64,000 bases of DNA from Patescibacteria group bacterium AH-259-L05 (GTDB lineage Bacteria > Patescibacteriota > Patescibacteriia > UBA2591 > UBA6264): the NCBI GenBank assembly GCA_027717985.1, contig JALLOO010000002.1, positions 7,257 to 71,256 of the forward strand, given 5' to 3'. Below, piece after piece: positions 4,221 to 44,820 of this stretch (within the stretch, counting starts at the first letter, position 1; the number at the start of each line of letters is the position of its first letter). Both the position numbers and the translations under genes were made by a program. The notes under the pieces were generated by a model. That model saw only the letters and a program-made list of their open reading frames with translations. It did no database searches and was not told where the DNA came from.

Positions 4221-6208
4221 TTCTTTTCCTTAGGCGTAAAGCCTGAGATTTTAAATTTAAACCCCTGCCCGACCGGCGGGCGGGCTTGTCCTGTCCTAGA
4301 AATCCGATAGGGAATGACAACAGTTAAATTTTTAAAAAATACAGGCGACCAGCGATTTGCTTCTGCCAAAACTGCAATTTTTAACCACGTACCCTTGTTT
4401 TCATCATCTTGTTTTACCAGTTTTATAAATTTATGTAATAAGCTTGATGGCGTAATAGTAATTTTTAATTTTTTGCTGCGAAGTTCATATTTACATTGCC
4501 CAGGGCGATGATACGTTCCTGATTTAGGAAATCGTGCCACACTCATTGCATCCCAGCCGCTCTCACCAGGCAAATGTTCAATAAATTCAGATGGCACTTC
4601 ACATAAATAAAAACTATTATATTCATCCCGGAAAAATCCCAAAGGATGACCCATCTGCTTTTTATAATATACTGCTTTAACTTCACGAAAGAGTTGTTGT
4701 GGCTGTTTTTTTACAAATTCTTTTGGCTTGAATGCTTTAAAATGTTTTTTAGCAAATATTGAAAACTCGCCTATATCATGCTCCCAATAATCTTTTAATG
4801 ACGGTAGTTTTCGTGAACGCGCTAAATCATCAACAATATGAAGCACATCATAGATATCCATCTCATTTTTTAACTTATAAATCGCATCGCGCCACTTAAT
4901 TGCCTTTTCAAATTCTTGCGCCTTTACGGCTTTATTCATTTCATCTTCAAATTCTAAAATCATTGCATTAAATTGGCCAGAAAACACGCGCTTTTTATAT
5001 GGCCGTCGGTGAACGGTCCCATATGCTTCTCGGTATGCATGTCGAATCTTGCCAGATCGTTGCCACTCAAACGCAAGATCAATAATCTGGCGATAATACT
5101 CGTGTGCTTTATCTTTTTTATTTTTTGATATATCAGGAATGGAAAATACAATATCTTTTAGTAAAAACGCGCCTGCCTCAATCATTTCCAATGACCACCA
5201 GGGCTTTGCGCTTGCCCACCAAAATTGATCTGACTGTAATGCCTTATCAAGTTTTTCTCTTGCTTCCTTGTAATACGGTGCTTTTGTATCTAATTTATGA
5301 ACTAAATCAATTACAAAATGTGTAAACTCCCATTGCAAATGGTGAATTGGATTTTCTGGATGACTCCATAACGTAAATGAGTGTTGTTTTTCTTTTTCTA
5401 AATAAAAATCCTGCTCTTCAGACGACCAGGTAGAGTCTCGCAGTTCAATTTCCTTATCAATGCCAAACTCTTTAACTAATTCAGAAACAAAAACTTTTTT
5501 AATTTTTTTATCATTATAAATTTGAAACAATAAATTTTCCAAACCGGGTCGATGATGTCCAAATGTTTCTGTATCCATCATGGTTAGAAGATACCGATCT
5601 TTTTCTAATTCATCTTTTCCAATTTCTTCAATAAATGACCGTGCACTTCGTGCAATGGCAGACAAAATTAACACACTAATGCGCTTATCCCGAAAAATAA
5701 TTTTAAAATTATCTAAACCCTTAATAGTATAAATACTTTTAAAATCTGGTTTCTTGGGAGATGCAAGCTCTTCCGCTATAATCCATTGAAATCCTGCCTC
5801 TTTCGCGGCTTCGGCAACCTTAAAACTTAATCCTAATTCTGGTGAAAAAAATCCTTGGGGCTTCCAACTCGCACCAAAATATTTTTTATTTGTTTTTTCA
5901 TTTAATTCAATCTGTCGCTTAATCTCATTCCTCGGTAATAATGGCAAAAACGGGTGATATTTCACCCCACCCGTAAACTCAATTTGTCCACGTTGTGCAA
6001 AACTTTTAATATCCTCAATCACATCCATATATCCATTGTTTGCTAATAATTCTACTAATCCCGCATTAATATTAATGGTAATTTTCATGTTTGGATTCAA
6101 AGACAAGCCGCCGATCACTTTGCGGTAGCTTTCATTAACAATCCGCTCTAAAATATCCAGTTGCTGATTGTATGGCTGATAAAAATGTAGAAAAAATCCC
6201 CACGTCAT
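4217..6208 (-). CDS. glycoside hydrolase family 57 alpha-glucan enzyme (663 aa, with C-terminal extension)
   Basis: The GH57 regions are present: HFYQP, GQIEF, GFFSPELG (nucleophile Glu), DTETFGHH (acid/base Asp) and the QFWWASAKPWW helical-domain motif. Confidence 0.7.
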   Translation of the reverse strand: MTWGFFLHFYQPYNQQLDILERIVNESYRKVIGGLSLNPNMKITININAGLVELLANNGYMDVIEDIKSFAQRGQIEFTGGVKYHPFLPLLPRNEIKRQIELNEKTNKKYFGASWKPQGFFSPELGLSFKVAEAAKEAGFQWIIAEELASPKKPDFKSIYTIKGLDNFKIIFRDKRISVLILSAIARSARSFIEEIGKDELEKDRYLLTMMDTETFGHHRPGLENLLFQIYNDKKIKKVFVSELVKEFGIDKEIELRDSTWSSEEQDFYLEKEKQHSFTLWSHPENPIHHLQWEFTHFVIDLVHKLDTKAPYYKEAREKLDKALQSDQFWWASAKPWWSLEMIEAGAFLLKDIVFSIPDISKNKKDKAHEYYRQIIDLAFEWQRSGKIRHAYREAYGTVHRRPYKKRVFSGQFNAMILEFEDEMNKAVKAQEFEKAIKWRDAIYKLKNEMDIYDVLHIVDDLARSRKLPSLKDYWEHDIGEFSIFAKKHFKAFKPKEFVKKQPQQLFREVKAVYYKKQMGHPLGFFRDEYNSFYLCEVPSEFIEHLPGESGWDAMSVARFPKSGTYHRPGQCKYELRSKKLKITITPSSLLHKFIKLVKQDDENKGTWLKIAVLAEANRWSPVFFKNLTVVIPYRISRTGQARPPVGQGFKFKISGFTPKEKK

Positions 6209-6240
6209 ACTAATAGTATACCATTTTATCCAAACAAAAA

Positions 6241-6270
6241 AAGCCAGCTGAATGCTGGCCTTTTTGAAAA
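6241..6270. terminator. hairpin GCCAGCUGAAUGCUGGC flanked by an A-run and a T-run (bidirectional terminator-like)
   Basis: AAAAAGCCAGCTGAATGCTGGCCTTTTTG lies immediately 3' of the 6290..6814 gene. A near-identical copy sits 3' of the 7140..7703 gene. Confidence 0.5.
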
Positions 6271-6289
6271 GAACAAATCCATTATGGGA

Positions 6290-6814
6290 TTACAATTTTT
6301 TGACTCTATACGGCTCTCTAAACTCTACATGTCTTATGTTATCGAAAGGAATAAATTTTATTTCAGGATCATCAGATTTATATTGATATCTAATCTCAAC
6401 ACAATCTCTCTTAACCTTTAATACTATTGTCGGAAAATAAAACGACCCACTCTTTATACGCAAACCAATCACCTGTCCAGACTTCTTTGCTTTTATAAAG
6501 CGGCTTTTAAGACTTTCTCTCGTTGCGGCTACATCTCTTTGTTTTGAGAGGCCAAAAGCTGACACATCCCCTATAGTCCCTATCTCGTCTAAAGGAAAGG
6601 TTATTCTAGAAGCAGTCCTTTTCTGGTTATCTCTACTAACATATTCAATTTCACTAATATATTCAAACTCAACATAATCTTTTCCGATTTTTACAATTTC
6701 TACCGCTTTATAGAATGAACTCGAATGCTTATTGCCTTTTGTTCGAATATTTGGTTTAAGTCCGGCCTGCCAAAATTTCTCAAGACATTTTCGAACTATT
6801 TTTCTTTCAAACAT
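6290..6814 (-). CDS. hypothetical protein, paralog A of a tandem pair, with an internal two-fold repeat
   Basis: Shares IRTxGxxxSSSFxKxVxIxxxGKDYVEFE...FPLxEI...IRHVEFxxPxxVK with the 7140..7703 protein. A strong SD (GAGGAGG) precedes it. Confidence 0.5.
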   Translation of the reverse strand: MFERKIVRKCLEKFWQAGLKPNIRTKGNKHSSSFYKAVEIVKIGKDYVEFEYISEIEYVSRDNQKRTASRITFPLDEIGTIGDVSAFGLSKQRDVAATRESLKSRFIKAKKSGQVIGLRIKSGSFYFPTIVLKVKRDCVEIRYQYKSDDPEIKFIPFDNIRHVEFREPYRVKKL

Positions 6815-6985
6815 AGATTACCTCCTCTTCGTTCGGGCTTTCAAACCCATGTTTGAAAAGAACTAATTTTACGGGGCCAAAACACCTTGTCCAGTCCTTC
6901 CCCGCGTTCAGACTAGACGCCCTCTTTCTCAGGGAGTAAAACTACCCTGCATTCTCTTTATACCATAATCACCAAACCCTGTCAA
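6815..6985 (-). promoter_or_regulatory. conserved promoter (TTGACA-17-TATAAA) plus ~140-nt 5' leader, copy 1
   Basis: On the minus strand TTGACAgggtttggtgattatggTATAAA is followed by a leader with hairpins CAGGG..CCCTG, CGGGG..CCCCG and TTCAAAC-atgg-GTTTGAA, then the SD. It is about 90% identical to 7704..7872. Confidence 0.55.
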
Positions 6986-6989
6986 CCTC

Positions 6990-7080
6990 TTTTTTTGTCA
7001 TTCCGCAGGACCCCTTTGTCATTCCTCACGAGCAGAGCAAGAGAAGGTGATGCGGAATGAAAGGGAGAATGACATCAACA
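6990..7080. repeat. GTCATTCCGC-family palindromic repeat element
   Basis: tgtcattccgcagg...tgcggaatga...gaatgacatc, with inverted-repeat arms. Confidence 0.5.
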
Positions 7081-7139
7081 TGTCTCTCCAAAGAAAAAGC
7101 CAGCACAATATGCTGACCTTTTTGAAAAGAACAAATCCA

Positions 7140-7703
7140 TTACGAGCTTTCTTTGACTTTTCGTGGCTTTTCAAACTCTACGTGCCTTATTTGGCTAAAA
7201 AGAATAATCATTAATTTGAAGTCCCCACCTTTTTTTGGTCTATGCTTAATCACTATATGATCTTTTCCCACGCTCCATATAGTTATATTAGAAAAAAATG
7301 ATCTTGCTCTCGTACGCAAAGCAATTTCTTTTGCTGAATGCTGTACTTCCTTAAAACGCTTCTTAAGGCTTTTTCTTTTATGCGTATGCGCCTCTTTAAT
7401 AAAACTGTCAACCTTTTTCTGTTTTGAAGACTTATAAACTGCTTCTCTACCAAATCCATTAAAAAACTCTACCTGTGCTATTTCCCGTAAGGGAAAAGTT
7501 GTAGTTTGATAAAAAATTCCTTTCTGTGAATTTGACCTATGTTCAAACTCAACATAATCTTTCCCCACGTCTAAAATCCATACATACTTAAAAAACGATG
7601 AACTCCATGAATCTCCCGTTGTCCTAATATGTGGATGCTGTTGGTTTAGCCGAAATCTCTCGAGTATTTTTCTAAGGGTATTCAGCTTCATTTTCTCAAA
7701 CAT
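7140..7703 (-). CDS. hypothetical protein, paralog B of the tandem pair
   Basis: Same architecture as the 6290..6814 protein. It has its own copy of the promoter/leader and of the terminator. Confidence 0.5.
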   Translation of the reverse strand: MFEKMKLNTLRKILERFRLNQQHPHIRTTGDSWSSSFFKYVWILDVGKDYVEFEHRSNSQKGIFYQTTTFPLREIAQVEFFNGFGREAVYKSSKQKKVDSFIKEAHTHKRKSLKKRFKEVQHSAKEIALRTRARSFFSNITIWSVGKDHIVIKHRPKKGGDFKLMIILFSQIRHVEFEKPRKVKESS

Positions 7704-7872
7704 AGTTTCTCTCCTTCATTCGGTCTTTCAAACCTATGTTTGAAAAGAACTGATTTTACGGGGCCTAAACACCTTGTCTAGCCCTTCCCCGCGTTCGGAC
7801 TAGACGCCCTCTTTCTCAGGGAGTAAAACCACCCTGCATTCTCTTTATATCATAATCACCAAACCCTGTCAA
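7704..7872 (-). promoter_or_regulatory. conserved promoter (TTGACA-17-TATAAA) plus 5' leader, copy 2
   Basis: Near-identical to 6815..6985, including the -35/-10 boxes at 7867-7872 and 7844-7849. Confidence 0.55.
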
Positions 7873-7980
7873 CTCAAAAAACAAAAAGCCAGCACAACGC
7901 TAGCCTAAATATATAAATATCTTTCAATTAAGTGAAATATTTTGGTGCATAATCTTTCAGTACACTGAAAGCTTTTATTA

Positions 7981-10907: not shown

Positions 10908-11199
10908 TTCATACCTCCTCGTTTTACCTATTGAAAAGAACCAAAATCACCATTGTTAAGTCTATCAAACTTCTCCTCTCTTGTCAACCCCTCAAAGCAA
11001 AAACAGGGACTATAATCTAGCCCCTGCTCTTTTTCCAATACTTGAACGTAAGCCATAAACCTACAAGAAACATGCTTAAACCAAGATAGGGAAATTCCTT
11101 CAGTAAAAATATTTCAAAAAGCGACTCTGACACGCTCAACGCCCACCATATCACAATACCAATGCGCTCTTTCGTCATTATGTCCTCCTTGTTTATATA

Positions 11200-11275
11200 A
11201 GAACCTGCTCGCTCCGCTCACAGAACCTTGAAGTTTGGAAGGGGCGATATTTGTATTCAAACTTTAAGAACCACT
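11200..11275. repeat. composite AAGAACC...GAACCTTG / aagtttgaaagg...tatttgtat..aagaacc element
   Basis: aagaacctgctcgctccgctcacagaaccttgaagtttggaaggggcgatatttgtattcaaactttaagaacc; the same arrangement recurs at 45768..45866. Confidence 0.55.
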
Positions 11276-13800: not shown

Positions 13801-13864
13801 ATTATGTTTCCTTTTTTTGATTAAAATTAAATTACATTAATTTATATACAATGAAAATTTAATT

Positions 13865-15364
13865 TCAAGGTTCTGACGAGCGAAGCGAGGAATGGTTCTT
13901 ATTATTTTGTCTTGTTTCGCGAATAACCCTTCTATAGAGGGTTACATATTTTTTGGCAGGAAGCTTCCATGAATATGATTCTTTCATGGCACGACGCACC
14001 AATGTTTTCCACGCTCCCCGACGTTTATAATCTTCTAATGCACGCGCAATGGCAAATAAAAGATCTTGAGACGTATACGAGGTAAACACAAACCCATTGC
14101 CTCTGCCTGTTTGGGGATTGTAGTCACTAATCGTATCAAGTAATCCACCGACCGCGTGCACAATAGGAATGGATCCATAGCGCAAGCTAATTAATTGCGA
14201 AATCCCACATGGTTCAAAACGAGATGGCATTAAATAAATATCTGAAGCAGCATATACCTTTCTCCCAATATGCTCTTGAAACGGTGAAAAAAATAATAAA
14301 TTTTTACGGTGCTTTCGCGCAGCTTTTCTTAAAAAATCTCTATATACCCCGCCACCGCTCCCTACAATAGCAATTTGTACATCAAGTTTCAAAAGATAAT
14401 CAAGTATATCAATAATTAATTCAAATCCTTTTTGCTCAGTCAATCGATTCGCTAAACCGATCAAGGGCGCTTTAGGATCAACTCTTAAACCAAATCGTTT
14501 TTGCAGCAACACCTTATTCTCACTCTTTTTTTCTAATGAACTTGCATCGTAATTTACATACACATCTTCATCAAATTGCGGATTAAAAATAGTATAATCA
14601 ACACCATTGATAATACCATATAAATCTTTTTTTCTTCCCCGTAAATAACTATCTACATTACATCCATGTTCGGGGGTTAATATTTCCTGTGCATATCGCG
14701 GACTGACGGTATTAATAAGATCGCTGTAGAGAATACCGCGCAGCGCAAAATTAAGCCAATGTAATTGATCTTTATCATGGGGCGGCAAACCCTTTCCATT
14801 ATCTTTTTTCTCTGGCGGAATCTTCCACCAATCTTCTGGTCCTTGAAATAATAAATTATGAATAGTGAAAAGTGTTCCAATATTTTTAAGCGTGTCATCA
14901 CGATTGTATTGTAATTTCAAATAATTAGGAATAAGTCCCGCATGCCAATCATGAGCATGAATAACCTGCGGCTTAAGTCCTAAAACCTTAAGTAGTTTAA
15001 GGGACGCAAGGTTAAATAATAAAAAACGAAGACCGTCGTCTTCATACCCATACAATTTATGCCGTGAACCAAATAATTCTCGCTGGCAAATAAATATAAC
15101 CGGATATTTATCAGGACATATTATTTTCTTAAACCCAAACCTGTATTCTTTCCCTCCAAATTCTACTGAAATCCTTTCCTTTAAATTCTCCATACCCCAT
15201 CCTTTTTTACCAATAAACCCATAATACGGAGTAAATACGACTATTTCATGTCCTAGTCGAACTAATGCACGCGGCAAAGATCGCGCCACATCAGCAAGCC
15301 CACCGCTTTTTGAATACGGAGAAATCTCAGAACTTACATGAACAATTTTTAAAGGCCGTACCAT
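13865..15364 (-). CDS. glgA: glycogen (starch) synthase, GT5
   Basis: KIVHVSSEISPYSKSGGLADV and the GT-B C-terminal motifs. The last roughly 12 codons (…HSSLRSSEP) are encoded by an AAGAACC-family repeat. Confidence 0.85.
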   Translation of the reverse strand: MVRPLKIVHVSSEISPYSKSGGLADVARSLPRALVRLGHEIVVFTPYYGFIGKKGWGMENLKERISVEFGGKEYRFGFKKIICPDKYPVIFICQRELFGSRHKLYGYEDDGLRFLLFNLASLKLLKVLGLKPQVIHAHDWHAGLIPNYLKLQYNRDDTLKNIGTLFTIHNLLFQGPEDWWKIPPEKKDNGKGLPPHDKDQLHWLNFALRGILYSDLINTVSPRYAQEILTPEHGCNVDSYLRGRKKDLYGIINGVDYTIFNPQFDEDVYVNYDASSLEKKSENKVLLQKRFGLRVDPKAPLIGLANRLTEQKGFELIIDILDYLLKLDVQIAIVGSGGGVYRDFLRKAARKHRKNLLFFSPFQEHIGRKVYAASDIYLMPSRFEPCGISQLISLRYGSIPIVHAVGGLLDTISDYNPQTGRGNGFVFTSYTSQDLLFAIARALEDYKRRGAWKTLVRRAMKESYSWKLPAKKYVTLYRRVIRETRQNNKNHSSLRSSEP

Positions 15365-16594: not shown

Positions 16595-17254
16595 TTACCT
16601 TTTCATTAAACTTAATTGATACTCTTTTACCTCTTTGCGTAAATATTTTTTTACTCTTGGCCAAGAATAACTTGAATCAAAAACTCTAATACGCCGACTG
16701 CGTGTAGCAGGAGTAGATTTTTCAGCATCAACAAAATAAATAAGTCCCCTCAGAGCCGTTAATACATTAAAGGTTGGATACTTCTCTTTTGTTAATCTTA
16801 TAATCTTTTTAAGGCCCATTTTCTGAATTAAATAATACATATCAATAAAATCTCTCTTAGTTCCTCTCTGAACAATGGCAGCTACTTTCATAGCTGCGAT
16901 ATCTTCAACAGAAGCTACAGGCACGCCGGAAATTAAAACCTTCGGGCGAATCAAAGCATATGGATAATAAAAACAACTAATGTCTACGCCCTGAACGCTT
17001 AATATTAATGTATCTTGCTCTATAACATCCTCTTCAATATCTTCTATAGAGAAGTGTCTATAAAAATCTTTTATTAATAAACGTCCATCAAATTTCTCAG
17101 GACTATAAAAATCAAAATCCTGGGATGTTCGATGGCCCATCTGTAAAGCCAATGCTGTCCCGCCAGATAAATACCCTCCACGTTCTTTAAGAAAAGTTAA
17201 TTTCTCAAAAACTTTTCTTTTTTGATAACTTAAAATAGTCTTTAAATACATCAA
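16595..17254 (-). CDS. AbiEii/AbiGii-like nucleotidyltransferase (putative toxin)
   Basis: GGTALALQMGHRTSQDFDFY matches the GGTAL plus DxD nucleotidyltransferase signature. It is shorter than typical AbiEii. Confidence 0.5.
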   Translation of the reverse strand: MMYLKTILSYQKRKVFEKLTFLKERGGYLSGGTALALQMGHRTSQDFDFYSPEKFDGRLLIKDFYRHFSIEDIEEDVIEQDTLILSVQGVDISCFYYPYALIRPKVLISGVPVASVEDIAAMKVAAIVQRGTKRDFIDMYYLIQKMGLKKIIRLTKEKYPTFNVLTALRGLIYFVDAEKSTPATRSRRIRVFDSSYSWPRVKKYLRKEVKEYQLSLMKR

Positions 17255-17549
17255 AGCGCGGATTAATATCTAAAATAGCCCATTTATAAACTTGTTTAGG
17301 GATCTTCACATCTAAAATTTTAGCCCAATAATTAAGAGATTTAGGGAACCACATCCCTCGTCTTGGATTTTTAACAACTTCAACAATATCTTGCTTTTTA
17401 TATGTTTTAAAAAGCCATTTCACTGCCCTTATATTACCACGATTTAAAACCTGTTGAATAATCAACTCTTTGTCATCGGGATCATAAGGATCCATTTGAG
17501 AAATGTCATACGACCACAAACATGTTTGTAAAAATTTAGGTAAAGCCAT
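17205..17549 (-). CDS. hypothetical protein; possible cognate partner of the AbiEii-like gene (50-nt overlap)
   Basis: Upstream overlapping ORF of 114 aa. No wHTH AbiEi signature was recognised. Confidence 0.3.
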   Translation of the reverse strand: MALPKFLQTCLWSYDISQMDPYDPDDKELIIQQVLNRGNIRAVKWLFKTYKKQDIVEVVKNPRRGMWFPKSLNYWAKILDVKIPKQVYKWAILDINPRFDVFKDYFKLSKKKSF

Positions 17550-17669: not shown

Positions 17670-18770
17670 ATGTCTACGCTTGATGATATAAATAAAATCA
17701 AACAACTTGATACATCAGGTATGGCTGATTTTATTGCTGATCTCCCCAACCAAATCCTCAAAGCATATAAACAAAGCCAGAAAATAAAATTGCCTAAAAA
17801 TTTTAAAAATATCTCAAATATTGTCGCCTGCGGCATGGGCGGTTCAGCTATTGGCGGTGACGTAGTCAAGGCACTGATTGATAATCAATTATCATTGCCG
17901 TTTATTATAAACCGCTCGTATCAATTGTCCCAAACAGTCAATAAAAACAGCTTGGTGTTTTTAGTTAGTTTTTCAGGCAATACCCAAGAAACCTTATCCT
18001 GCGCGAAAGTTGCAATACAGAAAAAAGCGCATATATTTGTTATCACCAGCGGTGGAAAACTATTAGTACTCGCTCAAGAAAAAAAAATACCCTTATTTAC
18101 ATTTTCATATAAAGGTCCGCCCCGCGCAAGCTTAGGCTATTTATTTATACCCATACTTATAACGTTAGAAAAACTTGGTCTTGTTAATCTTGATGCATTC
18201 AACATCACAGAATCAATTGAAAAACTAAAAAAATTTAACCAGCTATTTTACCCAGAAACGCCAAGCGAAAAAAATATTGCAAAATACTTAGCATATTTTA
18301 TATTTGACCATCTCCCTATTATTATTGCCCCTGAAGAGCTTAATGGTATTGCAAGACGCTTTAAAACACAAATGGCAGAAAATGCAAAAACATTTTCTTT
18401 TTTTGAAACTGCTCCTGAAATTTTTCACAATTCTATTGAAAGCCAATTTCCGTGGCGATTAAAAGATGATATTGTTTTTTTAATTCTCTCTCCTTTGTCT
18501 TCCCGCGCTTCGCGCGGGAAGACAAGAGAAGAAATGTCATCCCGAGCGCAGTCAAGGGAAGAAAAATTCATCACTGTTTTTAAAAAATTATTAGATAAAG
18601 AAAATATTCGCTGGGAAGCAATACCTGCATCTGGAGATAACGTATTTCTCAATATACTCTCTTTTATTCTTGCGGGTGATTGGATTAGTTTTTATTTGTC
18701 TATCCTTAATGAAACTGACCCCACGCCTGTTAAAAAAATACAATGGCTCAAGCGTCAAATAAAACAATGA
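17670..18770 (+). CDS. bifunctional phosphoglucose/phosphomannose isomerase (SIS domain)
   Basis: NIVACGMGGSAIGGDVV SIS motif, plus a C-terminal PGI/PMI-type region. The likely start is MSTLDDIN at 17670. It carries a palindromic repeat insertion at 18497-18568. Confidence 0.6.
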   Translation: MSTLDDINKIKQLDTSGMADFIADLPNQILKAYKQSQKIKLPKNFKNISNIVACGMGGSAIGGDVVKALIDNQLSLPFIINRSYQLSQTVNKNSLVFLVSFSGNTQETLSCAKVAIQKKAHIFVITSGGKLLVLAQEKKIPLFTFSYKGPPRASLGYLFIPILITLEKLGLVNLDAFNITESIEKLKKFNQLFYPETPSEKNIAKYLAYFIFDHLPIIIAPEELNGIARRFKTQMAENAKTFSFFETAPEIFHNSIESQFPWRLKDDIVFLILSPLSSRASRGKTREEMSSRAQSREEKFITVFKKLLDKENIRWEAIPASGDNVFLNILSFILAGDWISFYLSILNETDPTPVKKIQWLKRQIKQ

Positions 18771-21123: not shown

Positions 21124-21196
21124 TTGTCATTCCTTTTTTATTGTCATCCCGCACGAAACGCGGGATGACAAGGGGGTGTGCGGGATGACAAGGGGG
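21124..21196. repeat. GTCATCCCGC palindromic element, probable bidirectional terminator
   Basis: tgtcatcccgcacgaaacgcgggatgaca is a perfect 10-bp stem, followed by a second cgggatgacaaggggg half-site. It lies between convergent genes. Confidence 0.55.
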
Positions 21197-21206
21197 AGAA
21201 AACTTT

Positions 21207-21608
21207 CTATTCTGGAGCAGTTACCTCACTCAACCGCTCAATCACAAATGTAGCAATTGTATACGCTAAAATAACAATAATTAAGCCGACAACTGCGCTG
21301 GTTATAATACCCTTGGCTTTTTTTATTTTTTCCTCATTTCCACCCGAGGTCATCCACATAAATCCACCCACAATTAAAAGAACCACTAAAATAAGCCCTA
21401 ATAATTGTAACACAACTTTTACCATCCTGCCGACCAACGTTGGCACATCTGTTTCAGTTCCTAATCCTGCTTCGCCTGCAACATTTCGCAATTGTTCTAA
21501 CTGTGCAAAGGCAGGAGTAGCAATAATAAACAAAAATAAAAAAATGCTGACAAAACAAACAAATTGCGTGCCTGAAAAAACAGGCCTGCTATCTCTTATG
21601 CCTTCCAT
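21207..21608 (-). CDS. secreted bitopic membrane protein, paralog 1 (VirB2/TrbC-pilin-like topology)
   Basis: Sec signal peptide (…TPAFA/QLEQ), then TM1 ending LLIVGGFMWMTSGGNEEKIKKAKG, then TM2. Confidence 0.45.
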   Translation of the reverse strand: MEGIRDSRPVFSGTQFVCFVSIFLFLFIIATPAFAQLEQLRNVAGEAGLGTETDVPTLVGRMVKVVLQLLGLILVVLLIVGGFMWMTSGGNEEKIKKAKGIITSAVVGLIIVILAYTIATFVIERLSEVTAPE

Positions 21609-21631
21609 ACGATCTAATTTAATACTTCCTA

Positions 21632-21997
21632 CTAAGAGGCTCCTGTTACGCCCGTCAATTGATCAACAACAAATGTCGCAGCTGCGTATGCGATTATAAC
21701 AATCACTAAACCAATAATAGCTGCGCCCATCAACTGCTTTGCCTTGCCCACCTTTTCTTCATTCCCACCTGAGGTCATCCACATAAATCCGCCAACAATA
21801 AGCAAAATCGTAGCTATTAATCCGAGAAGGCTCAAAACAACCTTTACAATCGCGCCAATAACCTCTGGCAAACTTTTTGTCCCTAATCCAGCATTCTGCC
21901 CAAACTCAAGCAATCCTTCATTTAAAGCTTGCCCAAATGCTAATGAAGGCACCAATAGCAGTGAAACCAAAAGTGTAGAAGCAATAAGTTTTTTCAT
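21632..21997 (-). CDS. secreted bitopic membrane protein, paralog 2
   Basis: Signal peptide (…SLAFG/QAL) and LLIVGGFMWMTSGGNEEKVGKAKQ. Confidence 0.45.
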   Translation of the reverse strand: MKKLIASTLLVSLLLVPSLAFGQALNEGLLEFGQNAGLGTKSLPEVIGAIVKVVLSLLGLIATILLIVGGFMWMTSGGNEEKVGKAKQLMGAAIIGLVIVIIAYAAATFVVDQLTGVTGAS

Positions 21998-22099
21998 ACA
22001 AACTCTATTAATTTTTTAAACCCAACGACTTTATATACTATTTATACAAAATAAACCACAATTAGTCAAGTTTTCTACTGTGTATAACTTGTTGTATTG

Positions 22100-22250
22100 G
22101 AATTCCTAAATTCCGATACATACAAGAGGAAGGGGATCGGGGAAACGTAGTTTCCCCGTGGGGGTGACAGAAGCGAATGAAGTGAGCGACGCCAGAGGGC
22201 GGAAGCTCTATGGAGAACATAGTTCGCGAGCATTAGCGAGCGACTCCGTT
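22100..22250. repeat. GC-rich repeat/hairpin block within the pilin-like cluster
   Basis: cggggaaacgtagtttccccg is a perfect 9-bp palindrome, together with gaagtgagcgacg/gagcgactc motifs shared with 50058-50180. Confidence 0.4.
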
Positions 22251-22252
22251 CA

Positions 22253-22612
22253 TTACTCCCCTTTTAATGCCTTTAAAATAAACTCCAGAATTGCATAACT
22301 AAAGAAAATAAACGCCAATCCTATCACAGCCCATACAATCGTATCTTTTCCTTTTTTTATTTTTTCTGCATTTCCGCCTGAGGTCATCCACAAAATTCCC
22401 CCGTAGATAAACATTACCAAAGCCAAAACGCCCACAATGCCTAAAACTGCTTTAATAATCCTGCCAGCCAACTCTGGAATTGGTTCTTTCCCCTCTAAAT
22501 TTAGAGGGTCTTCCAATACTTGTGCAAACAAACTCTGGGACAACAATATATATACCCCTATCACCAAAACTACTATCATTCCTGCATAAATTTTATTTTT
22601 TTTATTTAGCAT
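22253..22612 (-). CDS. secreted bitopic membrane protein, paralog 3
   Basis: Signal peptide (…SLFA/QVL) and MFIYGGILWMTSGGNAEKIKKGKD. Confidence 0.45.
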   Translation of the reverse strand: MLNKKNKIYAGMIVVLVIGVYILLSQSLFAQVLEDPLNLEGKEPIPELAGRIIKAVLGIVGVLALVMFIYGGILWMTSGGNAEKIKKGKDTIVWAVIGLAFIFFSYAILEFILKALKGE

Positions 22613-22614
22613 AT

Positions 22615-23592
22615 TTATTTACAAGATGCATTTGTTATATCTTTTCTTATATCTAGTAACATCGAGGGGTCGACTTCCATTGCATACTTATACGTATATT
22701 CATCAACTATACCATTTTCTGCTAATCCAAAAAGGGATTCCTCTTTAAAGCCGTATTCTTGATAAAATCTATTATATGATTTTTTGAAGTTTATTGTGCA
22801 TATTTCTGTCTGCGATCCAAACTTTCCATCTATCCACTTACAATCGCATCCCATATCCTCTAATGCTCGCTGATAATTCTTAACTATTTGCGCTCTCCAG
22901 CATAAGCTATCCTCATTCTGAGGACTTACACAGTTATGACACCAGTAGGTAGTCGGAGCATCTTGAACAGGTGAAAAACAGCCAAAAGTATCAGGTTCTG
23001 GCTCCCATATATCTTCTATATCCCCAAGAAAACCAGGCCCTTCTACATCCTCAATCGGCAATTCTGGCCTTTCTGGCACCTCAAAACTTACATATTCTTC
23101 CTCAACTCCAAACATAGTACCAAGCACTCTAATTCCTGCTACCGCACCTAAAACAATCACCATGCCAACAACTGCGCCGCTGATAATCTTCTTACCTAAC
23201 TGCACCTTTCCAGTAGATCCGCCCGATGTTATCCAAATCACGCCGCCGATAATAAACATAAGCAAGGCAAAAACTCCTAAATATCTTAAAATTATTTTAG
23301 CAATATTAACTCCTAATGCTAAAAAGTTGCTTAAATCACAATCACCACAAAATACGCAAATTGGATCCCTCATCAACCATCCCAATTCACCGCCCTCCAC
23401 TACATTACCGCCCACTACTCTTTCCCCTTCTAGACCTCCCTGACAATTACATTTCCACGTCCCATCTTCTTGTTTTATACAGTCTGAATACCTATCGCCC
23501 CCAATCGCTCTTGGAAAAGCATATACAACAGAACTAATTAAAAATAACAAAAGCAATACTGCAAATATCAAAATTATTTTTTTAGAAAACAT
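22615..23592 (-). CDS. paralog 4: Cys-rich N-domain, pilin-like TM hairpin and C-terminal peptidoglycan-binding-like domain
   Basis: MFIIGGVIWITSGGSTGKVQLGKK core. N-terminal CIKQEDGTWKCNCQGG...CVFCGDCD. C-terminal CKWIDGKFGSQTEICTINFKKSYNRF...GLAENGIVDEYTY resembles PG_binding_1. Confidence 0.45.
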   Translation of the reverse strand: MFSKKIILIFAVLLLLFLISSVVYAFPRAIGGDRYSDCIKQEDGTWKCNCQGGLEGERVVGGNVVEGGELGWLMRDPICVFCGDCDLSNFLALGVNIAKIILRYLGVFALLMFIIGGVIWITSGGSTGKVQLGKKIISGAVVGMVIVLGAVAGIRVLGTMFGVEEEYVSFEVPERPELPIEDVEGPGFLGDIEDIWEPEPDTFGCFSPVQDAPTTYWCHNCVSPQNEDSLCWRAQIVKNYQRALEDMGCDCKWIDGKFGSQTEICTINFKKSYNRFYQEYGFKEESLFGLAENGIVDEYTYKYAMEVDPSMLLDIRKDITNASCK

Positions 23593-23594: not shown

Positions 23595-24974
23595 TTAATA
23601 TGTTAAATTCACTCTCTTAGCTCCATAATCAATCGCTCGCTCAACTGTTTTCTCGCCACTTAACACAGCAGAAACCATTTCTTCAAATGCTTCTTCAACT
23701 AATGAATAATTTTTTCCGTGATACCAGGTCTTGGCAGTTAACACCCCGCTTGCAAAGGGATTAAGATCAAAATCCTCTAACTGCATAGCAATCAATTCCC
23801 GGTGCGCCGTAGGATGTTTTGATCGTTCAACAAATGTTTTCGCATTTTGCGTCTCGGTGGCATACAATACAAATGCCCATGCTTCATGAGGATGCTCTGT
23901 TCTTTTTGATATTACTTCTATGGGATAGCGCGCATAATTTACTTCTTTTAATGATCCTGCGATTTGGGGAACTTTACTTATATCAAAATTTAACTTCGGC
24001 GCCTGCTCTTTAATTTTGGTTAAATAATCAGAATACCCAAAAATAAAGCCAACTTTTCCCGCAATAAAGGCATCTAATGATGGTTCCATTGCATTATTCC
24101 ATGTATAAATATCTGACCCTGGCTGGCTAAACCCAACATAAAATTGCATTGCTTCTTGCGCAGGAAAATATTTTGGATCATCAGGCAATGATTGATGAAA
24201 CGTTGCCGTATCACCGCGTTCATTTGCCATACGCGTGCCATTCTGAAACATTAATAATGATAAAATATCCGTAACATATGAAATATTTTCTGAAGCACCA
24301 AATGCAGCACCTGACTGGATAAACTCTCCATATCGATCTTGAAGCGTAAGCGCAGCAACATCTAGAGCAAATTCCTCCCATGTCTGCGGTGCATTTGCAA
24401 TCCTTGCGGAATTCAACATATCTCGATTATAATATAATGCTAACACGTCTAAGGAGAGCGGCAGTCCATATATTCTATTATCAATTACCACGTCTTTTGG
24501 CACTGCTTCAACAAATGTTTCGCGCAACTGTCGTAGGCCTGGTGCTTTTTTTACCTCTTTAATAAGTTTTGTTTCTTTTTTAATGCTACCCGTCGTGATT
24601 TGTTTTGCCATAATTACTTCGCCCCCGAGCTCTCGCGGCAAAATCTTGGACTGATATTTCCCCAGCCACGTATTAGGAATAGAAAAAATATCAGGTCCTC
24701 GGTCTTCAGCCCATGCTTCTAATAATTCTTGTTCATATTCTTGTTCTCGTATCACCCTATACGTAATAGAAACATGTGGATACAGTGCTTGAAATCCTTG
24801 GATAATGGCACCAAATGCATCTTGGCCGTCTTGTGTTCTCCAATACACCAAATTAACTGGCTTTGCCCGTTGTGCCAGTTCTTTTGATATTCCTCTACAC
24901 CCTAGACCAGCAGTAACAAAAAATACAGCAATGAGAGACAAAATAAATAATTTTGAATATTTTTTTCTAAACAT
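23595..24974 (-). CDS. ABC transporter family-1 (MalE-like) solute-binding lipoprotein, orphan
   Basis: Lipobox LGC, then LVYWRTQDGQDAFGAIIQGFQALYPHVSITY... No permease or ATPase is adjacent. Confidence 0.65.
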   Translation of the reverse strand: MFRKKYSKLFILSLIAVFFVTAGLGCRGISKELAQRAKPVNLVYWRTQDGQDAFGAIIQGFQALYPHVSITYRVIREQEYEQELLEAWAEDRGPDIFSIPNTWLGKYQSKILPRELGGEVIMAKQITTGSIKKETKLIKEVKKAPGLRQLRETFVEAVPKDVVIDNRIYGLPLSLDVLALYYNRDMLNSARIANAPQTWEEFALDVAALTLQDRYGEFIQSGAAFGASENISYVTDILSLLMFQNGTRMANERGDTATFHQSLPDDPKYFPAQEAMQFYVGFSQPGSDIYTWNNAMEPSLDAFIAGKVGFIFGYSDYLTKIKEQAPKLNFDISKVPQIAGSLKEVNYARYPIEVISKRTEHPHEAWAFVLYATETQNAKTFVERSKHPTAHRELIAMQLEDFDLNPFASGVLTAKTWYHGKNYSLVEEAFEEMVSAVLSGEKTVERAIDYGAKRVNLTY

Positions 24975-24988
24975 ATATCATCCCTCCT

Positions 24989-25078
24989 CTTGTCATCCCA
25001 CACTCAATGTGGGAAGACAGAGAGTGGGTTGGAATGACAAAAAAAGATGTCATTCCGCGGACTTTATCCGCGAGATTT
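24989..25078. repeat. GTCATCCCAC / TCATTCCGCGG palindromic elements
   Basis: tgtcatcccacactcaatgtgggaagaca and ccgcggactttatccgcgag hairpins lie between the solute-binding protein start and the galU stop. Confidence 0.5.
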
Positions 25079-29518: not shown

Positions 29519-32500
29519 ATGTCAAAACATAAATCAAAATCACAATGGCGGTCTAAAAAAATTAGTTCGCCAAAAAAATCAAAATTCACCAAGAAAAAGT
29601 TATCTCCGGCGGAGCAAAGTCTTCAAAAAGCAAAAAAAACCACCGCACCAAAACGAAAAATAAAACGAGCTAAACCCCAACCCCGTACCAAAACAAGTTC
29701 GGTACGGGGCAAGAAAACAAATCTGGTGAAAAAGCTTTTTATTTTTATTATTTTTCTCGTCCTTGTCTTTGGTGCAATCGGGAGCATCAGTCTATTTTTG
29801 CTTACCAAAAGCCTGCCGCATCCAGAAAAATTAATAGAGCGAAGTATTGCCCAAAGTACGAAAATATATGCCCGAGATGAAAAAACACTGTTATATGAAA
29901 TATTTTCTGAACAAAGGCGAACCGTAGTTGATCTGGAAAAAATTCCTCAGCATCTTGTCTATGCCACTATTGTTTCAGAAGACAGAGATTTTTTTACTCA
30001 TCCAGGATTTGATATTTCTGGGATTGCGCGCGCCATTCTCGTTGATATTCTTCGCGGAGGTAAAGTTCAAGGTGGCTCAACCCTCACCCAGCAGTTTATA
30101 AAAAATGCCTTTTTAACGCGAAAAAAAACATACACCAGAAAAATCAAAGAACTGCTCATGGCATATCAAGTTGAAAAAAAATTTAGCAAACTTGAAATAC
30201 TTCAGATGTACTTTAATGAAATTCCCTACGGATCAAATGCATATGGCGCTGAAGCAGCGAGTCAAATCTATTTTTCAAAATCAGTACGCGACCTAACGTT
30301 AGATGAAACAACGCTCTTAGCTGCGCTTCCGAAAGCGCCTACCTATTACTCTCCCTATGGTCAACACACTGAAGAACTACTTTTTCGCCAACACTTTATT
30401 TTAGATGTTATGACTGAAGAAGGATATATTACCTCTTCGCAGGCTTTGCAGGCTAAAAGCATTAATACGTTAGAAAAAATTACGTCACGTCGTGAAAATA
30501 TTCGCGCTCCTCACTTTGTCTTCTACGTGAGAGAATTATTAACTGAAAAATACGGTGATCGTCTTGTAGAACAGGGCGGGCTCAAGGTTATTACCACACT
30601 TGACTTTGACAAACAAACAATTGCAGAACAAGCAATTGAAAAATATGCAGAGCGTAATGAAGAAATATTTGATGCTACAAATGCGGCATTAGTTGCCATT
30701 GATGTAGATACCGGACAAATTCTTGCTATGGTAGGATCAAAAGATTTTTTTAACGAAGAAATTGATGGCCAAGTAAATGTAGTAACACGAGAACGTCAAC
30801 CAGGATCATCCTTTAAACCAATTGTCTATGCGACCGCATTTGAAAAAGGCTATACCCCTAATACAATTATATTTGATGCAGAAACAAGTTTTGGCCCTAA
30901 AACACCTGAACCAGATGCCCAAGATTATATCCCGCGAAACTATGATGAAAAATTCAGGGGTCCGGTTAGTATGCGAAAAGCATTAGCAGGATCATTAAAT
31001 ATCCCAGGTGTAAAAACAATGTATTTAGCAGGGGTTAATAACGTTTTAAACACGGCGGAACGTATGGGCTACACTACCTTAGAAGACAGAGAACAATACG
31101 GTCTCTCGCTTGTTTTAGGAGGGGGAGAGATAAAACTATTAGAACATGTAGCAGCTTTTGCTATTTTTGCCCGTGAAGGTGTTAAAATCCCTACAACGAG
31201 TATTTTAAAAGTGGAAGATAACAAAGGTAATATTTTAGAAGAATTACCTAAAAAACCCAAACTTCCTCAAACAGTATTTGATCCGCAAATCGCCCGGCTC
31301 ATCAATGACATCTTATCTGATAATCAATCACGGGCGTTTATGTTTGGCTATCAAAACTTTTTAACACTCCCTAATCGGCCTGTTGCCGCAAAAACAGGTA
31401 CTACCAATGACTTTCGTGACGCGTGGACTGTTGGCTTTACGCCAAATCTTGCAGCTGGTGTATGGGTGGGGAATAACAACAATGATGTAATGGGTGAAAA
31501 AGCTGATGGTTCAACGGTTGCCGCGCCCATTTGGAATGAATTTATGAAGCGTGCCTTAGAAAATACCTCTCCTCAACCATTTACTCCTCCTGAAACAATC
31601 TACGTAGACAAGCCAATATTAAACGGGGAAATCCCTGGGAAAATTACGCTCAAAATTGACACGGCATCAAAAAAATTAGCAACTGAGCTCACGCCTGACT
31701 CACAAATAATAGAAAAAACCTTTGTAAGCTTTTATCCTATTCTCTACTACATAGATAAAAATAACCCGCAAGGACCGCTCCCCTCAAACCCAAAAGCTGA
31801 TTATCAATATGAATTCTGGGAAGAGGGAATTACCAACTGGCTTACTGCCGTATCTGAATTACTTGCCTCACCAGCTTCTCCCTCTGTCATCCTGCCACTT
31901 CAGGATGACAAAGAGGAGGGACAGGATGACAAAGAGGAGGGACAGGATGACAAAGAGAGCGTCATCCCGAGCGAAGACGGGGAAGGCCCCAAAGTTGTTA
32001 TTTCTGATTTTATATTTGACCTTGCGCTTGAAGGACTTGAAATACCACCAACTGAATATGATGATGTCCATATTCCAGCAAATGAACCGTATATAAAAAT
32101 TCTTTCTCCTTCAAATAATACAATCATTAATGAAAATGTTATTCGGATAAAGGTAGAAGCATCAGCGCCGCGTGGACTTAAAAAAATAACATGTTCTATT
32201 GATGATGCACCGCTTGATAGTATTGTGGTAAACAGCCCAAATATTCAGTCATACACCTGTGTCCTTGGCCTTAGCGGGATCTCTTCGGGAAAGCATACTA
32301 TTAAAGCAACCGCGCTTGATGATGTTGGTAACAACAATACCGACGCTATTCAAATAATTACCGCTCAAGGATTTGAAAGGACATTTGAATGGCTTTCACC
32401 AAAAAATAATGATGTGGTATATCAAGGTAATTTTCCACTCACACTCTCAGTTCTCACTCCGCCGACTAAAATCAATACGATAAAGTTTTTCGCACAAAAT

Positions 32501-37411: not shown

Positions 37412-37466
37412 ATCATTCCTTTCAGACTTCAAGGTTCTTCCGAACGAAGTGAGGAATGATTCTTAT
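37412..37466. repeat. AAGAACC-family element nested in a 9-bp inverted repeat (atcattcct...aggaatgat)
   Basis: cttcaaggttcttccgaacgaagtgaggaatgattcttat lies in the divergent mltG/ychF intergenic region. Confidence 0.5.
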
Positions 37467-37552
37467 TTATTTTAACAAGAATAACATATAATACAAGATG
37501 AGATACATGAGTAACACTTTCTTTTTTTAACTAGAAACAATATACTTAAAAT

Positions 37553-38614: not shown

Positions 38615-38706
38615 TTAAATTCGTCATTCGTCATCCCACACCCCATTCGTCACCTCGCAACTTTTAGCTGCAGGGTGGCACTTTTTCTTGTCATCCAGCT
38701 TCGCGG

Positions 38707-38812
38707 GATGATAAAGTGATGGGATGACAAAGGAATAGGATGACAAAGTGATGGGATGACAAAGGAATAGGATGACAAAGTGATGGGATGACAAAGGAAT
38801 AGGATGACAAAG
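38707..38812. repeat. tandem array: 3.3 copies of the 32-nt unit gatgacaaagtgatgggatgacaaaggaatag (built from 16-nt gatgacaaag-like subunits)
   Basis: Direct repeats with no spacers, preceded by tcgtcattcgtcatcccaca and gtcatccagcttcgcgggatga hairpins. Confidence 0.7.
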
Positions 38813-42190: not shown

Positions 42191-42199
42191 ACTTAAAAA

Positions 42200-42232
42200 T
42201 CCCTGTATCAACTACAGGGGTTTTTCTTTTTG
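42200..42232 (+). terminator. rho-independent terminator CCCTGTAtcaactaCAGGGG+T-run
   Basis: Immediately 3' of the 1089-aa gene. Confidence 0.6.
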
Positions 42233-42251
42233 TCATTCCGCGACCTTTTTT

Positions 42252-42283
42252 TGTCATTCCGCGACCAGTGGTCGCGGAATGAC
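42252..42283. repeat. GTCATTCCGCGACC palindromic element
   Basis: gtcattccgcgaccagtggtcgcggaatgac is a perfect 14-bp stem, preceded by a second tgtcattccgcgacc half-copy. Confidence 0.6.
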
Positions 42284-42351
42284 AAAGGTGGGTTGACTTT
42301 TTTCTAAAATCTGTCATGATATAAATAACTAATACGTAAAGGAGGTATGCT

Positions 42352-43659: not shown

Positions 43660-43695
43660 AGAAAAAGCCATGGCCACCACGCCATGGCTTTTTAC
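43660..43695 (+). terminator. rho-independent terminator AAAGCCATGGCcaccacGCCATGGCTTTTT
   Basis: Followed by the 43728..43755 tgtcatcccgcaaaattgcggaatgaca palindrome. Confidence 0.65.
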
Positions 43696-43773
43696 ATACG
43701 TCTTTAAACTACGAAATATATTTTTTGTGTCATCCCGCAAAATTGCGGAATGACAAAAAAAATATTAAAAAAT

Positions 43774-44223
43774 TTAAGTAGATTTTTGTATAGACCGTAT
43801 CACTAAAATAAAAACACCAGCCATAATCATTGCATCCGCTATGTTGAATGCAAACAAAAATAAAATGTCAACGTAATCTATAACGGCACCGTATATAAAA
43901 CGATCTAATATATTACTTATAGCTCCAACAACAATCAAACTTAAACTAAAAACAGCTGTTATTTTTCTTTCTTGATAACTGGTAATCAAACTTGATATTA
44001 CAAAAATTAAAACAATACCAAAAAAAACATAAAATAATAAACCTGATAATGGTAGAGAAAACGCAATATATGGATTTTCAAAAACAGAAAAATTAATAAA
44101 AAAAATATTTTTTTCTATACCACTCAATGCAAGTATTTTTAAAACTCGGTCTACAATAAAAAAAAATACGACCAGCGTATTAATAAACATGAGCTGTTTT
44201 CGCCAACGTTTAACTTGTTCCAT
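43774..44223 (-). CDS. lspA: lipoprotein signal peptidase II
   Basis: NILDRFIYGAVIDYVDI...FNIADAMI. Confidence 0.75.
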   Translation of the reverse strand: MEQVKRWRKQLMFINTLVVFFFIVDRVLKILALSGIEKNIFFINFSVFENPYIAFSLPLSGLLFYVFFGIVLIFVISSLITSYQERKITAVFSLSLIVVGAISNILDRFIYGAVIDYVDILFLFAFNIADAMIMAGVFILVIRSIQKST

Positions 44224-44267
44224 GATTTTTAAAATTTAGCATTAAAAATAACAAACCTTTTAAGGTT

Positions 44268-44636: not shown

Positions 44637-44682
44637 AAAAACACTTATTCTGGTTAGTGCTTTGCGCTCCACAGTTAGTATA

Positions 44683-44722: not shown

Positions 44723-44820
44723 CAGGACTTACAAATGTGAAAGTAAACTTTCCCATTTGATTCGTCCTTAGGAATTATAGAGCAAAAATCGTAAATGACA
44801 AGAAAAGTTATCCACACCTC

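Follow-up and report, generated by a model that had tools for sequence, protein, structure and literature searches.

Dispersed GC-rich hairpin repeats in a Patescibacteria genome and their relation to the motifs of Ssn nucleases

The Neisseria Transformation Sequence (NTS), CGTCATTCCCGCGMAVGCGGGAATCYRG, is bound only as single-stranded DNA (ssDNA) and is cut just upstream by SsnA, a GIY-YIG protein of about 100 aa (cd10448; Chenal et al., 2025, PMC11893778). The NTS has been generalized there to "Ssn-related motifs" (SRM) that flank Ssn genes in many phyla, the arrangement NTS-ssnA-NTS has been likened to an insertion sequence, genomes with >300 motifs are enriched in symbionts, only 2% of NTS copies lie in genes, and the demonstrated role of Ssn in Neisseria is the modulation of transformation (Chenal et al., 2025, PMC11893778). 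Here we describe a real and dispersed family of GC-rich palindromic repeats in 64,000 nt of DNA from Patescibacteria group bacterium AH-259-L05 (the whole stretch, 64 kb, is called the window), to which the locus at 21125-21197 belongs, and compare it with these and other known repeats. The YchF, AtpG, and PGI proteins of the window are 100% identical to those on record for AH-259-L05.

Rickettsia palindromic elements (RPE) are about 100-150 bp long and form ten Rickettsia-specific families with a conserved peptide (Ogata et al., 2000, via PMC10969869). The repeats of the window are like RPE in being palindromes of a reduced, AT-rich, symbiont-type genome and in having inserted in frame into unrelated housekeeping genes, where they add short peptides at tolerated sites. 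They differ in size, the copies being mostly 29-37 bp, solo arms or arrays, with two at 69 and 111 bp, and the likeness drawn here is one of description. No paper linking RPE to GIY-YIG or Ssn was found in the literature. Repetitive extragenic palindromes (REP) and bacterial interspersed mosaic elements (BIME), together with the REP-associated tyrosine transposases (RAYT), offer a second parallel: short, GC-rich, extragenic palindromes that form ssDNA hairpins, are found clustered or in arrays, and come with the gene of a partner enzyme that carries its own repeats on either side. They part ways in the sequence of the head and in the family of the partner (Y1 HUH transposase vs. GIY-YIG). The dRS3 repeat of Neisseria (ATTCCC-N8-GGGAAT) is the NTS core, and the stems of the window, ATYCCGC…GCGGRAT, are close to it. 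Correia elements can be compared as inverted-repeat, non-autonomous elements. They are 100-200 bp long, with a TA target duplication and unrelated termini, whereas no consistent target duplication is seen in the window copies.

A symmetric variant of the Ssn-related motif

By sequence, structure and cross-genome association, the family belongs to the NTS/SRM class. It is a symmetric, two-ended variant without a gene, lying beyond the reach of the published pattern and in a Patescibacteria host. The arms start with GTCAT-YCCGC where the NTS has GTCAT-TCCCGC. In 33 arms, TGTCAT followed by YCCGC or YCCGA conforms to the 5' box (HGTCWY) and stem start (YYVSB) of SRM, and the arms agree with 62 Ssn-flanking motifs in the columns that are invariant there (G-T-C-A…C-C). 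A GC-rich inverted repeat that can fold in ssDNA, another feature of SRM, is present in the predicted DNA folds. The likeness thus extends from the (T/C)GTCAT box leading into a YCCSG stem to a GC-rich hairpin of 20-50 nt, many copies, inverted pairs, and enrichment in symbiont-type genomes. The host differs: in the available text of Chenal et al. (2025, PMC11893778) no Patescibacteria or other candidate phyla radiation (CPR) host was found, and no description of these repeats in Patescibacteria was found in the literature.

The family is far in excess of chance. TGTCATYCCRC has 11 exact matches in the window vs. 0.09 expected, a number reached in 0 of 100 shuffles, and the half-site GTCATYCY has 36 (4.9 ± 2.0 expected), 33 of which cluster within 11 compact loci. 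In the consensus of the 33 arms, a pyrimidine-rich stretch precedes TGTCATYCCGC. The elements make up about 1.7% of the window and have a GC content of 44-66%, the window having 35%. As ssDNA, the short hairpins fold with -12 to -22 kcal/mol (z = -3.4 to -8.2), the strongest folds (z = -5.5 to -8.2) being at 21.1, 42.2, 43.7, and 18.5 kb. Some copies are paired inverted motifs or single hairpins with two ends; others are solo arms or arms repeated in tandem, with periods of 16, 20-21, and 30 nt. The interiors vary between copies but the termini are conserved. The initial annotation, which had described dispersed palindromes with conserved termini and variable interiors, GC-richer than their surroundings, is borne out in these respects. 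Nine of its ten loci hold members, the remaining one (22100-22250) having no TGTCATYCC box; the list left out three loci within genes (18495-18566, 31878-31985, and 57953-58042). The loci are as follows, in window coordinates, with the strand given for the copies in genes.

6987-7078: composite cluster; left arms at 6996 and 7017, right arms at 7052-7062 and 7064-7074
18495-18566, plus strand: copy in pgi; hairpin 18495-18525, TTGTCTTCCCGCGC-TTC-GCGCGGGAAGACAA, with a perfect 14-bp stem, then solo unit TGTCATCCCGAGCGCAGTCAAGGGAAGA
21125-21197: locus under study; solo left box, hairpin, duplicated right arm
22133-22250: doubtful member; 58% GC, palindromic, no TGTCATYCC box
24976-25075: cluster between the galU stop and the start of an SBP gene; hairpin, extra right arm, asymmetric unit
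31878-31985, plus strand: block in the PBP1A gene; one left arm, three tandem right arms, solo unit
38620-38812: region downstream of ychF; decayed copies, imperfect hairpin, right-arm array
42229-42286: left arm twice in tandem (every 21 nt), right arm once; strong fold
43726-43757: hairpin GTGTCATCCCGCAA-AA-TTGCGGAATGACAA between convergent genes; z = -5.55
50059-50169: 111-bp element upstream of dnaN; two asymmetric SRM-like units, inverted
50271-50339: 69-bp element directly upstream of dnaN; two inverted units
57953-58042, minus strand: array in atpG; three tandem 30-nt copies of a solo unit, coding strand CCCCTGTCATTCCGAGCGAGC

The locus at 21.1 kb lies between convergent genes, for a GT2 glycosyltransferase and a type IV secretion system (T4SS)-pilin-like protein. 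It begins with a solo left box, TGTCATTCC (21125-21135). The hairpin that follows at 21141-21171, TTGTCATCCCGCAC-GAAA-CGCGGGATGACAA, is near-perfect, with a perfect core of 11 bp (TGTCATCCCGC/GCGGGATGACA) and T-A pairs flanking it, much as had been noted for 21142-21170. A duplicated right arm (21178-21191) pairs perfectly over 14 nt with the left arm (21141-21154). The locus folds with -16.9 kcal/mol (z = -6.95).

Spread across phyla and association with Ssn genes

The hairpin is not confined to one lineage. When one genome per species was scanned for TGTCATYCCGC-N1-30-GCGGRATGACA, the exact hairpin was found in at least 108 loci of many phyla, the chance expectation being about 4 matches in 596 Gb (our own estimate, assuming uniform base composition). 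Hosts among the matches listed include Rhizobium, Bradyrhizobium, Prevotella, Acidobacteriota, Gemmatimonadota, Chloroflexia, Spirochaetia, and a Rickettsia endosymbiont, the last with short TGTCATCCCGC hairpins (loci L016 and L065). Some of the listed matches resemble the window in finer detail: L058 and L095 have the duplicated left arm and L036 the flanks CCCCTTGTCAT…ATGACAAGGGG. The initial annotation had allowed for copies confined to the window, as by a local duplication, or for rRNA or tRNA fragments. The spread across phyla speaks against the former; as to the latter, a tRNA-Lys is the sole match to Rfam in the window at gathering thresholds, and the elements are therefore neither known RNA families nor rRNA/tRNA fragments. 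The viral contigs scanned had no match to the exact hairpin, and hence gave no sign of a phage vector. De novo clustering of open reading frames (ORFs) around the 108 cross-phylum loci listed revealed no neighboring gene in common.

One of the cross-phylum loci, L012, from a Phenylobacterium metagenome-assembled genome, has a GIY-YIG gene (PF01541, E = 7e-17) whose stop codon is followed, after 18 nt, by TGTCATCCCGC…GCGGGATGACA. With its protein as the query, 80 Ssn-like loci were collected from metagenomes. The density of GTCATYCC in these loci is 4.19/kb within 250 bp of the Ssn-like gene vs. 0.23/kb farther off, an 18-fold difference, and 65 of the 80 have at least one box near the gene. 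The boxes are also oriented: of 76 loci, 60 have a forward box upstream of the gene; of 77, 55 have a reverse box downstream; and 49 loci have both, at a median distance of about 64 bp from the gene. The opposite orientations were seen in just 25 and 23 loci. The architecture is therefore one of inverted ends, [GTCAT-hairpin]–ssn–[hairpin-ATGAC]. Most of the Ssn-flanking motifs are asymmetric, TGTCATCCCGG-inner hairpin-CCGGGACCCAT, and in two loci (L181 and L189) the Neisseria NTS itself is at the Ssn-like gene. The symmetric form was found at three examined genes: besides L012, it is present as TTTTGTCATCCCGG…CCGGGATGACAAGGGGG, with window-like flanks, directly at the Ssn-like genes of L173 and L188. 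Loci L113 and L012, whose Ssn-like proteins are 86% identical, have at one and the same locus an inverted pair of units and a single symmetric hairpin, respectively.

A covariance model built from the 62 Ssn-flanking motifs was run unfiltered on the window, and members of the family account for most of its top 16 matches. The best match is the locus under study (21139-21186, E = 0.019). Further family matches are at 42.25 kb on both strands, 6993-7058, 25023-25042, 18501-18519, the 38.7-kb array, and 50309-50342, the right half of the 69-bp element (E = 1.6). The second-best match, 17468-17496 (E = 0.2; CTTTGTCATCGGGATCATAAGGATCCATT), is inside ORF 17205-17549 and carries both 5' and 3' SRM-like boxes; it may have arisen by decay of a canonical unit or may match by chance.

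Turnover of the copies and competing explanations

The copies have been inserted recently and differentially, as comparison with paralogous and orthologous sites shows. The 92-nt cluster at 6987-7078 is absent from a paralogous copy of the region (junction at 7873|7874), even though the two copies share 89% identity over the adjoining 182 nt. In the sister genome AH-259-L07 (GCA_027718005.1), whose YchF is 82% identical to that of the window, the spacer between the GT2 and pilin genes is an empty 32 bp, pgi is free of the insert, and the 38.7-kb right-arm array is missing. A hairpin is present in both genomes at 42.2 kb, alike in its termini but not in its interior; at the position of 43726-43757, AH-259-L07 has a half-site alone; the spacer orthologous to 22133-22250 differs; and at the position of 24976-25075 a different repeat, of the AGAACC family, is found. 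Upstream of dnaN in two further relatives (L195 and L193), an AT-rich block is kept but both long elements are absent. In L110 and L193-L196, which are more distant relatives, the box occurs about as often as expected by chance. The resemblance to mobile elements, which the initial annotation had proposed to examine by comparing relatives, is thus supported by the empty sites. Its other suggested sign, target-site duplication, is not: four empty-site comparisons yielded no consistent duplication, the sole candidate being an ambiguous TCAAC at 6987-7078.

As had been suggested from the sequence, the repeats also enter reading frames, in atpG, pgi, and the PBP1A gene. AtpG residues ~205-240 consist of SPVIPSEPSP three times, from 3 x 30 nt. 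The unit is present once in AH-259-L07 and not at all in P0123 and P0125 (77% and 69% identical); more distant AtpG homologues have no VIPSE insert aligned at the site, and SVVPDEPNKTKK at this site in P0124 may be a decayed remnant. The pgi copy, which includes the hairpin with the perfect 14-bp stem, spans residues ~287-310 in frame. The protein has SPLSSRASRGKTREEMSSRAQSREEK in AH-259-L05 vs. STKNETEFKQ in AH-259-L07, a net gain of 45 nt, and P0243 PGI has only the SSRAQSREEK part in common. In PBP1A, the block covers residues ~787-822, the Pfam/NCBIfam PBP1A core ending near residue 700. The periods in genes are multiples of three (30 and 21 nt) and that of the intergenic array is 16 nt, which fits selection on the reading frame. 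Related Patescibacteria have other lineage-specific in-frame inserts at different positions (PGI P0243-P0246 and AtpG P0125), for example NRALQNLVTRFARNN, IIEESEKSLKSSISRFSQDSEISSVPKAQVQ, and, in AtpG, NLHNEIDPIRNNPDGHRDAALNKERIS, which suggests recurrent in-frame invasion of the clade by repeat-derived DNA. It may be added that atpG and atpD abut in the window, whereas the relatives have a spacer of about 400-500 bp between them (L112:5706-6104, L193:10952-11461) with an ORF of 97-136 aa on the opposite strand and without a Pfam match.

The proposal that the hairpins probably double as terminators did not hold up. On both strands of the hairpins at 21141, 42250, 43726, 18495, and 24990, the 5' flank is rich in T/Y and the 3' flank in A/R, and because of this the strong hairpins lack a 3' T-tract whichever strand is read. 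A terminator scan of the window did not call the TGTCAT hairpins and called neighboring terminators instead. Separate terminators are at 42195-42225 and 43672-43689, and gene 7140-7703 has one of its own beside the 6987-7078 cluster. The positions between convergent genes that had been described apply to two of the eight intergenic loci (21.1 and 43.7 kb), but the other six are between co-directional genes, often downstream of a separate canonical terminator. One copy at most is an exception: a terminator-like call at 38667-38679 falls inside the decayed copy 38652-38683, which is likely the co-opted terminator of ychF. In AH-259-L07, the position of the ychF terminator is taken by an intact TGTCACCCCGC hairpin.

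On balance, we lean toward the view that the copies in AH-259-L05 are NTS/SRM-class hairpin repeats, gene-free versions of the Ssn unit. The basic unit is a 5' box, (T)GTCAT, joined without a gap to a GC-rich stem (YCCGC or YCCGAG). As in the characterized systems, the hairpin would form in ssDNA, be bound by Ssn, and be nicked a few nt upstream of the box. In units encoding Ssn, two inverted motifs bracket the gene, GTCAT-hairpin … ssn … hairpin-ATGAC. On this view the gene-free copies come in three forms: two inverted motifs side by side (50059-50169 and 50271-50339), both ends collapsed into one hairpin (21141-21171, 42250-42286, 43726-43757, and 18495-18525), and solo arms or tandem arm arrays, arising by duplication of 16-30 nt units. 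Since both arms carry the box in the collapsed hairpins, both strands would present the recognition surface. The copies lie in intergenic spacers and, in multiples of three bases, in putatively tolerant loops of atpG, pgi, and PBP1A. The enzyme that creates or spreads them would be of the Ssn type, whether encoded elsewhere in the genome or acting on imported DNA, and the copies would be without a dedicated host function, the ychF terminator copy excepted. A bolder version, which we regard as possible but doubtful, holds that the two-ended hairpins and paired units are miniature gene-free derivatives of a selfish Ssn element that spread via ssDNA intermediates and colonize genes in frame.

Several results weigh against a derivation from Ssn units. 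The full published SRM pattern, HGTCWYN(0-2)YYVSBRHN(0-5)WNVSBRGN(0-2)RNCYNB, has no match in the window, and its first two-thirds alone match 3 sites vs. 0.46 expected. The pattern misses the short hairpins because the directional 3' box (RNCYNB; ATCCAG, ACCCAT, ATCYRG) is replaced in them by ATGACA, the complement of the 5' box. The units of the long elements end in ATCTCA, which is near a 3' box but fails at the last position. The short hairpins are accordingly two-ended, in contrast to the directional NTS, and copies in genes make up about a quarter of the window loci but 2% of the NTS. The E-values of the covariance model are weak (0.02-10), and the 3' box was never matched. A GIY-YIG gene is within ~8 kb of only one of the 108 cross-phylum loci listed (L012). 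Neither GIY-YIG nor Y1 transposase genes were found in the 64-kb window, and no Ssn-like gene in 164 kb of the lineage (the window and 100 kb of relatives), searched with phmmer and a 25-sequence profile hidden Markov model. Finally, we know of no demonstration that Ssn moves or copies its own motifs.

The main rivals are nevertheless less well supported. The lack of an Ssn gene in the 164 kb and of full SRM matches, together with the inverted termini and the presence/absence polymorphism, would suit a lineage-specific palindromic MITE (a miniature inverted-repeat transposable element), moved in trans by a conventional transposase and resembling NTS/SRM by coincidence or in the short box only. 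Such an element should not have an identical 11-nt arm in many phyla and adjoining Ssn genes; with no transposase found in the window, many copies just 29-37 bp long or reduced to solo arms, and at most the ambiguous TCAAC for a target duplication, we consider a MITE unlikely. Dedicated enzymes could be dispensed with altogether if the copies were by-products of hairpin-driven replication slippage, gene conversion, or DNA imported by transformation. Patescibacteria are thought to rely on DNA uptake, tandem duplications of arms (16-30 nt) are common, the copies at shared positions in AH-259-L05 and AH-259-L07 differ in their interiors while keeping their termini, and, again, no partner gene was found in the 164 kb. 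But slippage only expands existing copies and cannot seed unrelated loci, and the concentration of the box at the flanks of Ssn genes in other genomes would be left unexplained, which makes this origin rather improbable.

The remaining two explanations fare worse. That the hairpins are host elements evolved in place, as terminators, RNA-stability hairpins, or sites of DNA-binding proteins, is suggested by the intergenic position of most copies, by the decayed copy with its T-tract at the ychF terminator position, conserved in AH-259-L07, and by the purine-rich flank that supplies GGAGG upstream of the start of gene 23595-24974. It is difficult to reconcile with strong hairpins that have no T-tract on either strand and adjoin separate terminators, with copies inside three essential genes, with a sister genome that does without several copies and has no replacement, and with the same sequence in unrelated phyla; there is little to be said for it as a general account. 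REP/BIME-type repeats moved by a RAYT of the IS200/IS605 Y1 family would also be short, GC-rich, extragenic, and clustered, and AH-259-L07 does encode a RAYT-like protein (NF047646, E = 1e-10). The palindrome on either side of that gene, however, is another one, CGGGGGTCSGACCCCCG, without a match in the window even when 3 mismatches are allowed; no Y1 transposase is present in the window; and the 5' box is TGTCAT and not the GTAG-type head of REP. We find a REP/RAYT identity hardly credible and have rejected it, and the likeness to REP, RPE, or MITE elements first suggested for the family survives only in part: the copies behave as inserted elements and enter reading frames as RPE do, but they are not REP/RAYT-like, nor are they private to a lineage. 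The RAYT-like Y1 gene (L197:14419-14984, contig JALLOP010000021.1, incomplete at the end of the locus) is bracketed by the CGGGGGTCSGACCCCCG palindromes, of which one more copy is in L110, and belongs to a separate REP/RAYT system in the sister genome.

The copies are of interest in several respects. The symmetric, two-ended form is missed by the published pattern yet is present in many phyla and directly beside some Ssn genes, so that current motif counts are probably underestimates. The gene-free architectures fit a reading in which the Ssn unit is mobile and has given rise to miniature derivatives, and the recent insertions that keep the frame of atpG, pgi, and the PBP1A gene, in a streamlined Patescibacteria genome, parallel those of the Rickettsia RPE. 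To our knowledge, the mechanism of RPE has never been explained. Should the selfish-Ssn version be true, Ssn would be the long-missing mobilizing enzyme of RPE-like "coding palindromes," and such elements would invade an ultra-small Patescibacteria genome via imported DNA, perhaps without a resident nuclease. The hairpins described here are concrete substrates for asking whether Ssn cuts both strands of a symmetric site. Descriptions of Ssn nucleases and their motifs date only from 2025 (Chenal et al., 2025, PMC11893778).

Individual copies and neighboring repeats

The remaining copies differ in build and surroundings. The 92-nt insertion at 6987-7078 is between tandem paralogous genes, just past the terminator of gene 7140-7703, and the fold of the whole cluster is weak (z = -2.4). 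The paralogous genes, 6290-6814 and 7140-7703, of unassigned function, stem from a tandem duplication of ~880 bp (window 6150-7950). The pgi copy folds with -18.5 kcal/mol (z = -6.85). In PBP1A, the right arms (GGATGACAAAGAGGAGGGACA) repeat every 21 nt and are followed by the solo unit CGTCATCCCGAGCGAAGAC, the encoded peptide being SVILPLQDDKEEGQDDKEEGQDDKESVIPSE.

The membership of 22133-22250 is doubtful because it has no TGTCATYCC box, only a degenerate GGGGGTGACAGAAG after the hairpin CGGGGAAAC-GTA-GTTTCCCCG; it may be a degenerate copy of the family. It has CGAAGTGAGCGA in common with the element at 50059-50169. The region around it, 21207-23592, has three to four paralogous T4SS-pilin-like genes (NF045849/PF18895) interleaved with repeat elements. 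In the cluster at 24976-25075 (z = -3.4), the hairpin TTGTCATCCCACAC-TCAA-TGTGGGAAGACA at 24990-25020 is followed by the extra right arm (25029-25040) and the asymmetric unit TGTCATTCCGCGGA-CTTTA-TCCGCGAG (25048-25075). Read on the minus strand (24975-24990), the purine-rich flank of this cluster is ATGACAAGAGGAGGGATGATATATG, which puts a Shine-Dalgarno-like GGAGG ~8 nt before the ATG of gene 23595-24974. The repeat may thus have supplied or replaced the ribosome-binding site of this gene.

Downstream of ychF, the decayed copy TTCGTCACCTCGCA…TGCAGGGTGGCAC (38652-38683) is followed by TTTTT, then by an imperfect hairpin (38688-38714) and by seven right arms with a period of 16 nt (38703-38812). 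The copy at 42229-42286, with a stem perfect over 18 bp (TTTGTCATTCCGCGACCA|TGGTCGCGGAATGACAAA), has a fold of -21.6 kcal/mol (z = -8.2); it follows a true terminator (42195-42225) and precedes a promoter-like site that belongs to gene 42352.

Two long elements precede dnaN, the real start of which is near 50378. The 111-bp element (50059-50169) consists of TGTCATTTCGA…GAGAAATCTCA and TGAGATTCCTCG…CTCGGAATGACA, its terminal TGTCAT/ATGACA being paired in the minimum-free-energy fold; its two ends are those of an Ssn unit, but no gene lies between them. The 69-bp element (50271-50339) consists of TGTCATTGCGAGG…GCAATCTCA and TGAGATCCCTCG…CTCGGGATGACA, which can also be written as GTCATTGCGAGG…GCAATCTCA | TGAGATCCCTCG…GGGATGAC, that is, as asymmetric units in inverted orientation. 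The left termini are variant: TGTCATTTCGA in 50058-50180 and TGTCATTGCGA in 50268-50352. The cumulative GC skew has its minimum within ~44000-50400 of the window, dnaN starting near 50378, and an AT-rich block with DnaA-box-like sequences at 49841-50010 is conserved with L195, the clustering of DnaA boxes taken alone being weak there. The region ~44000-50400 is probably the replication origin, with both long hairpin elements inside.

A second repeat is also dispersed in the window. It has the form TATAAGAACC-[GC-rich 9-19 nt, e.g., TGCTCGCTCCGCTCA]-(C)AGAACCTTGAA and lies at 11195-11235, 13864-13908 (minus strand), 37428-37472 (minus strand), 44678-44715, 45770-45803, 45830-45863, 50218-50260, and 55978-56020 (minus strand), and also at ~11540-11585 of L197. 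The AGAACC hexamer is directly repeated on either side of the GC-rich core, in the manner of a target duplication, and the cores resemble SRM interiors (GAGCGAAGCGAG). Two copies are extended to a unit of ~60 nt with an inverted repeat of its own, and one overlaps the 3' end of ORF 13865-15364.

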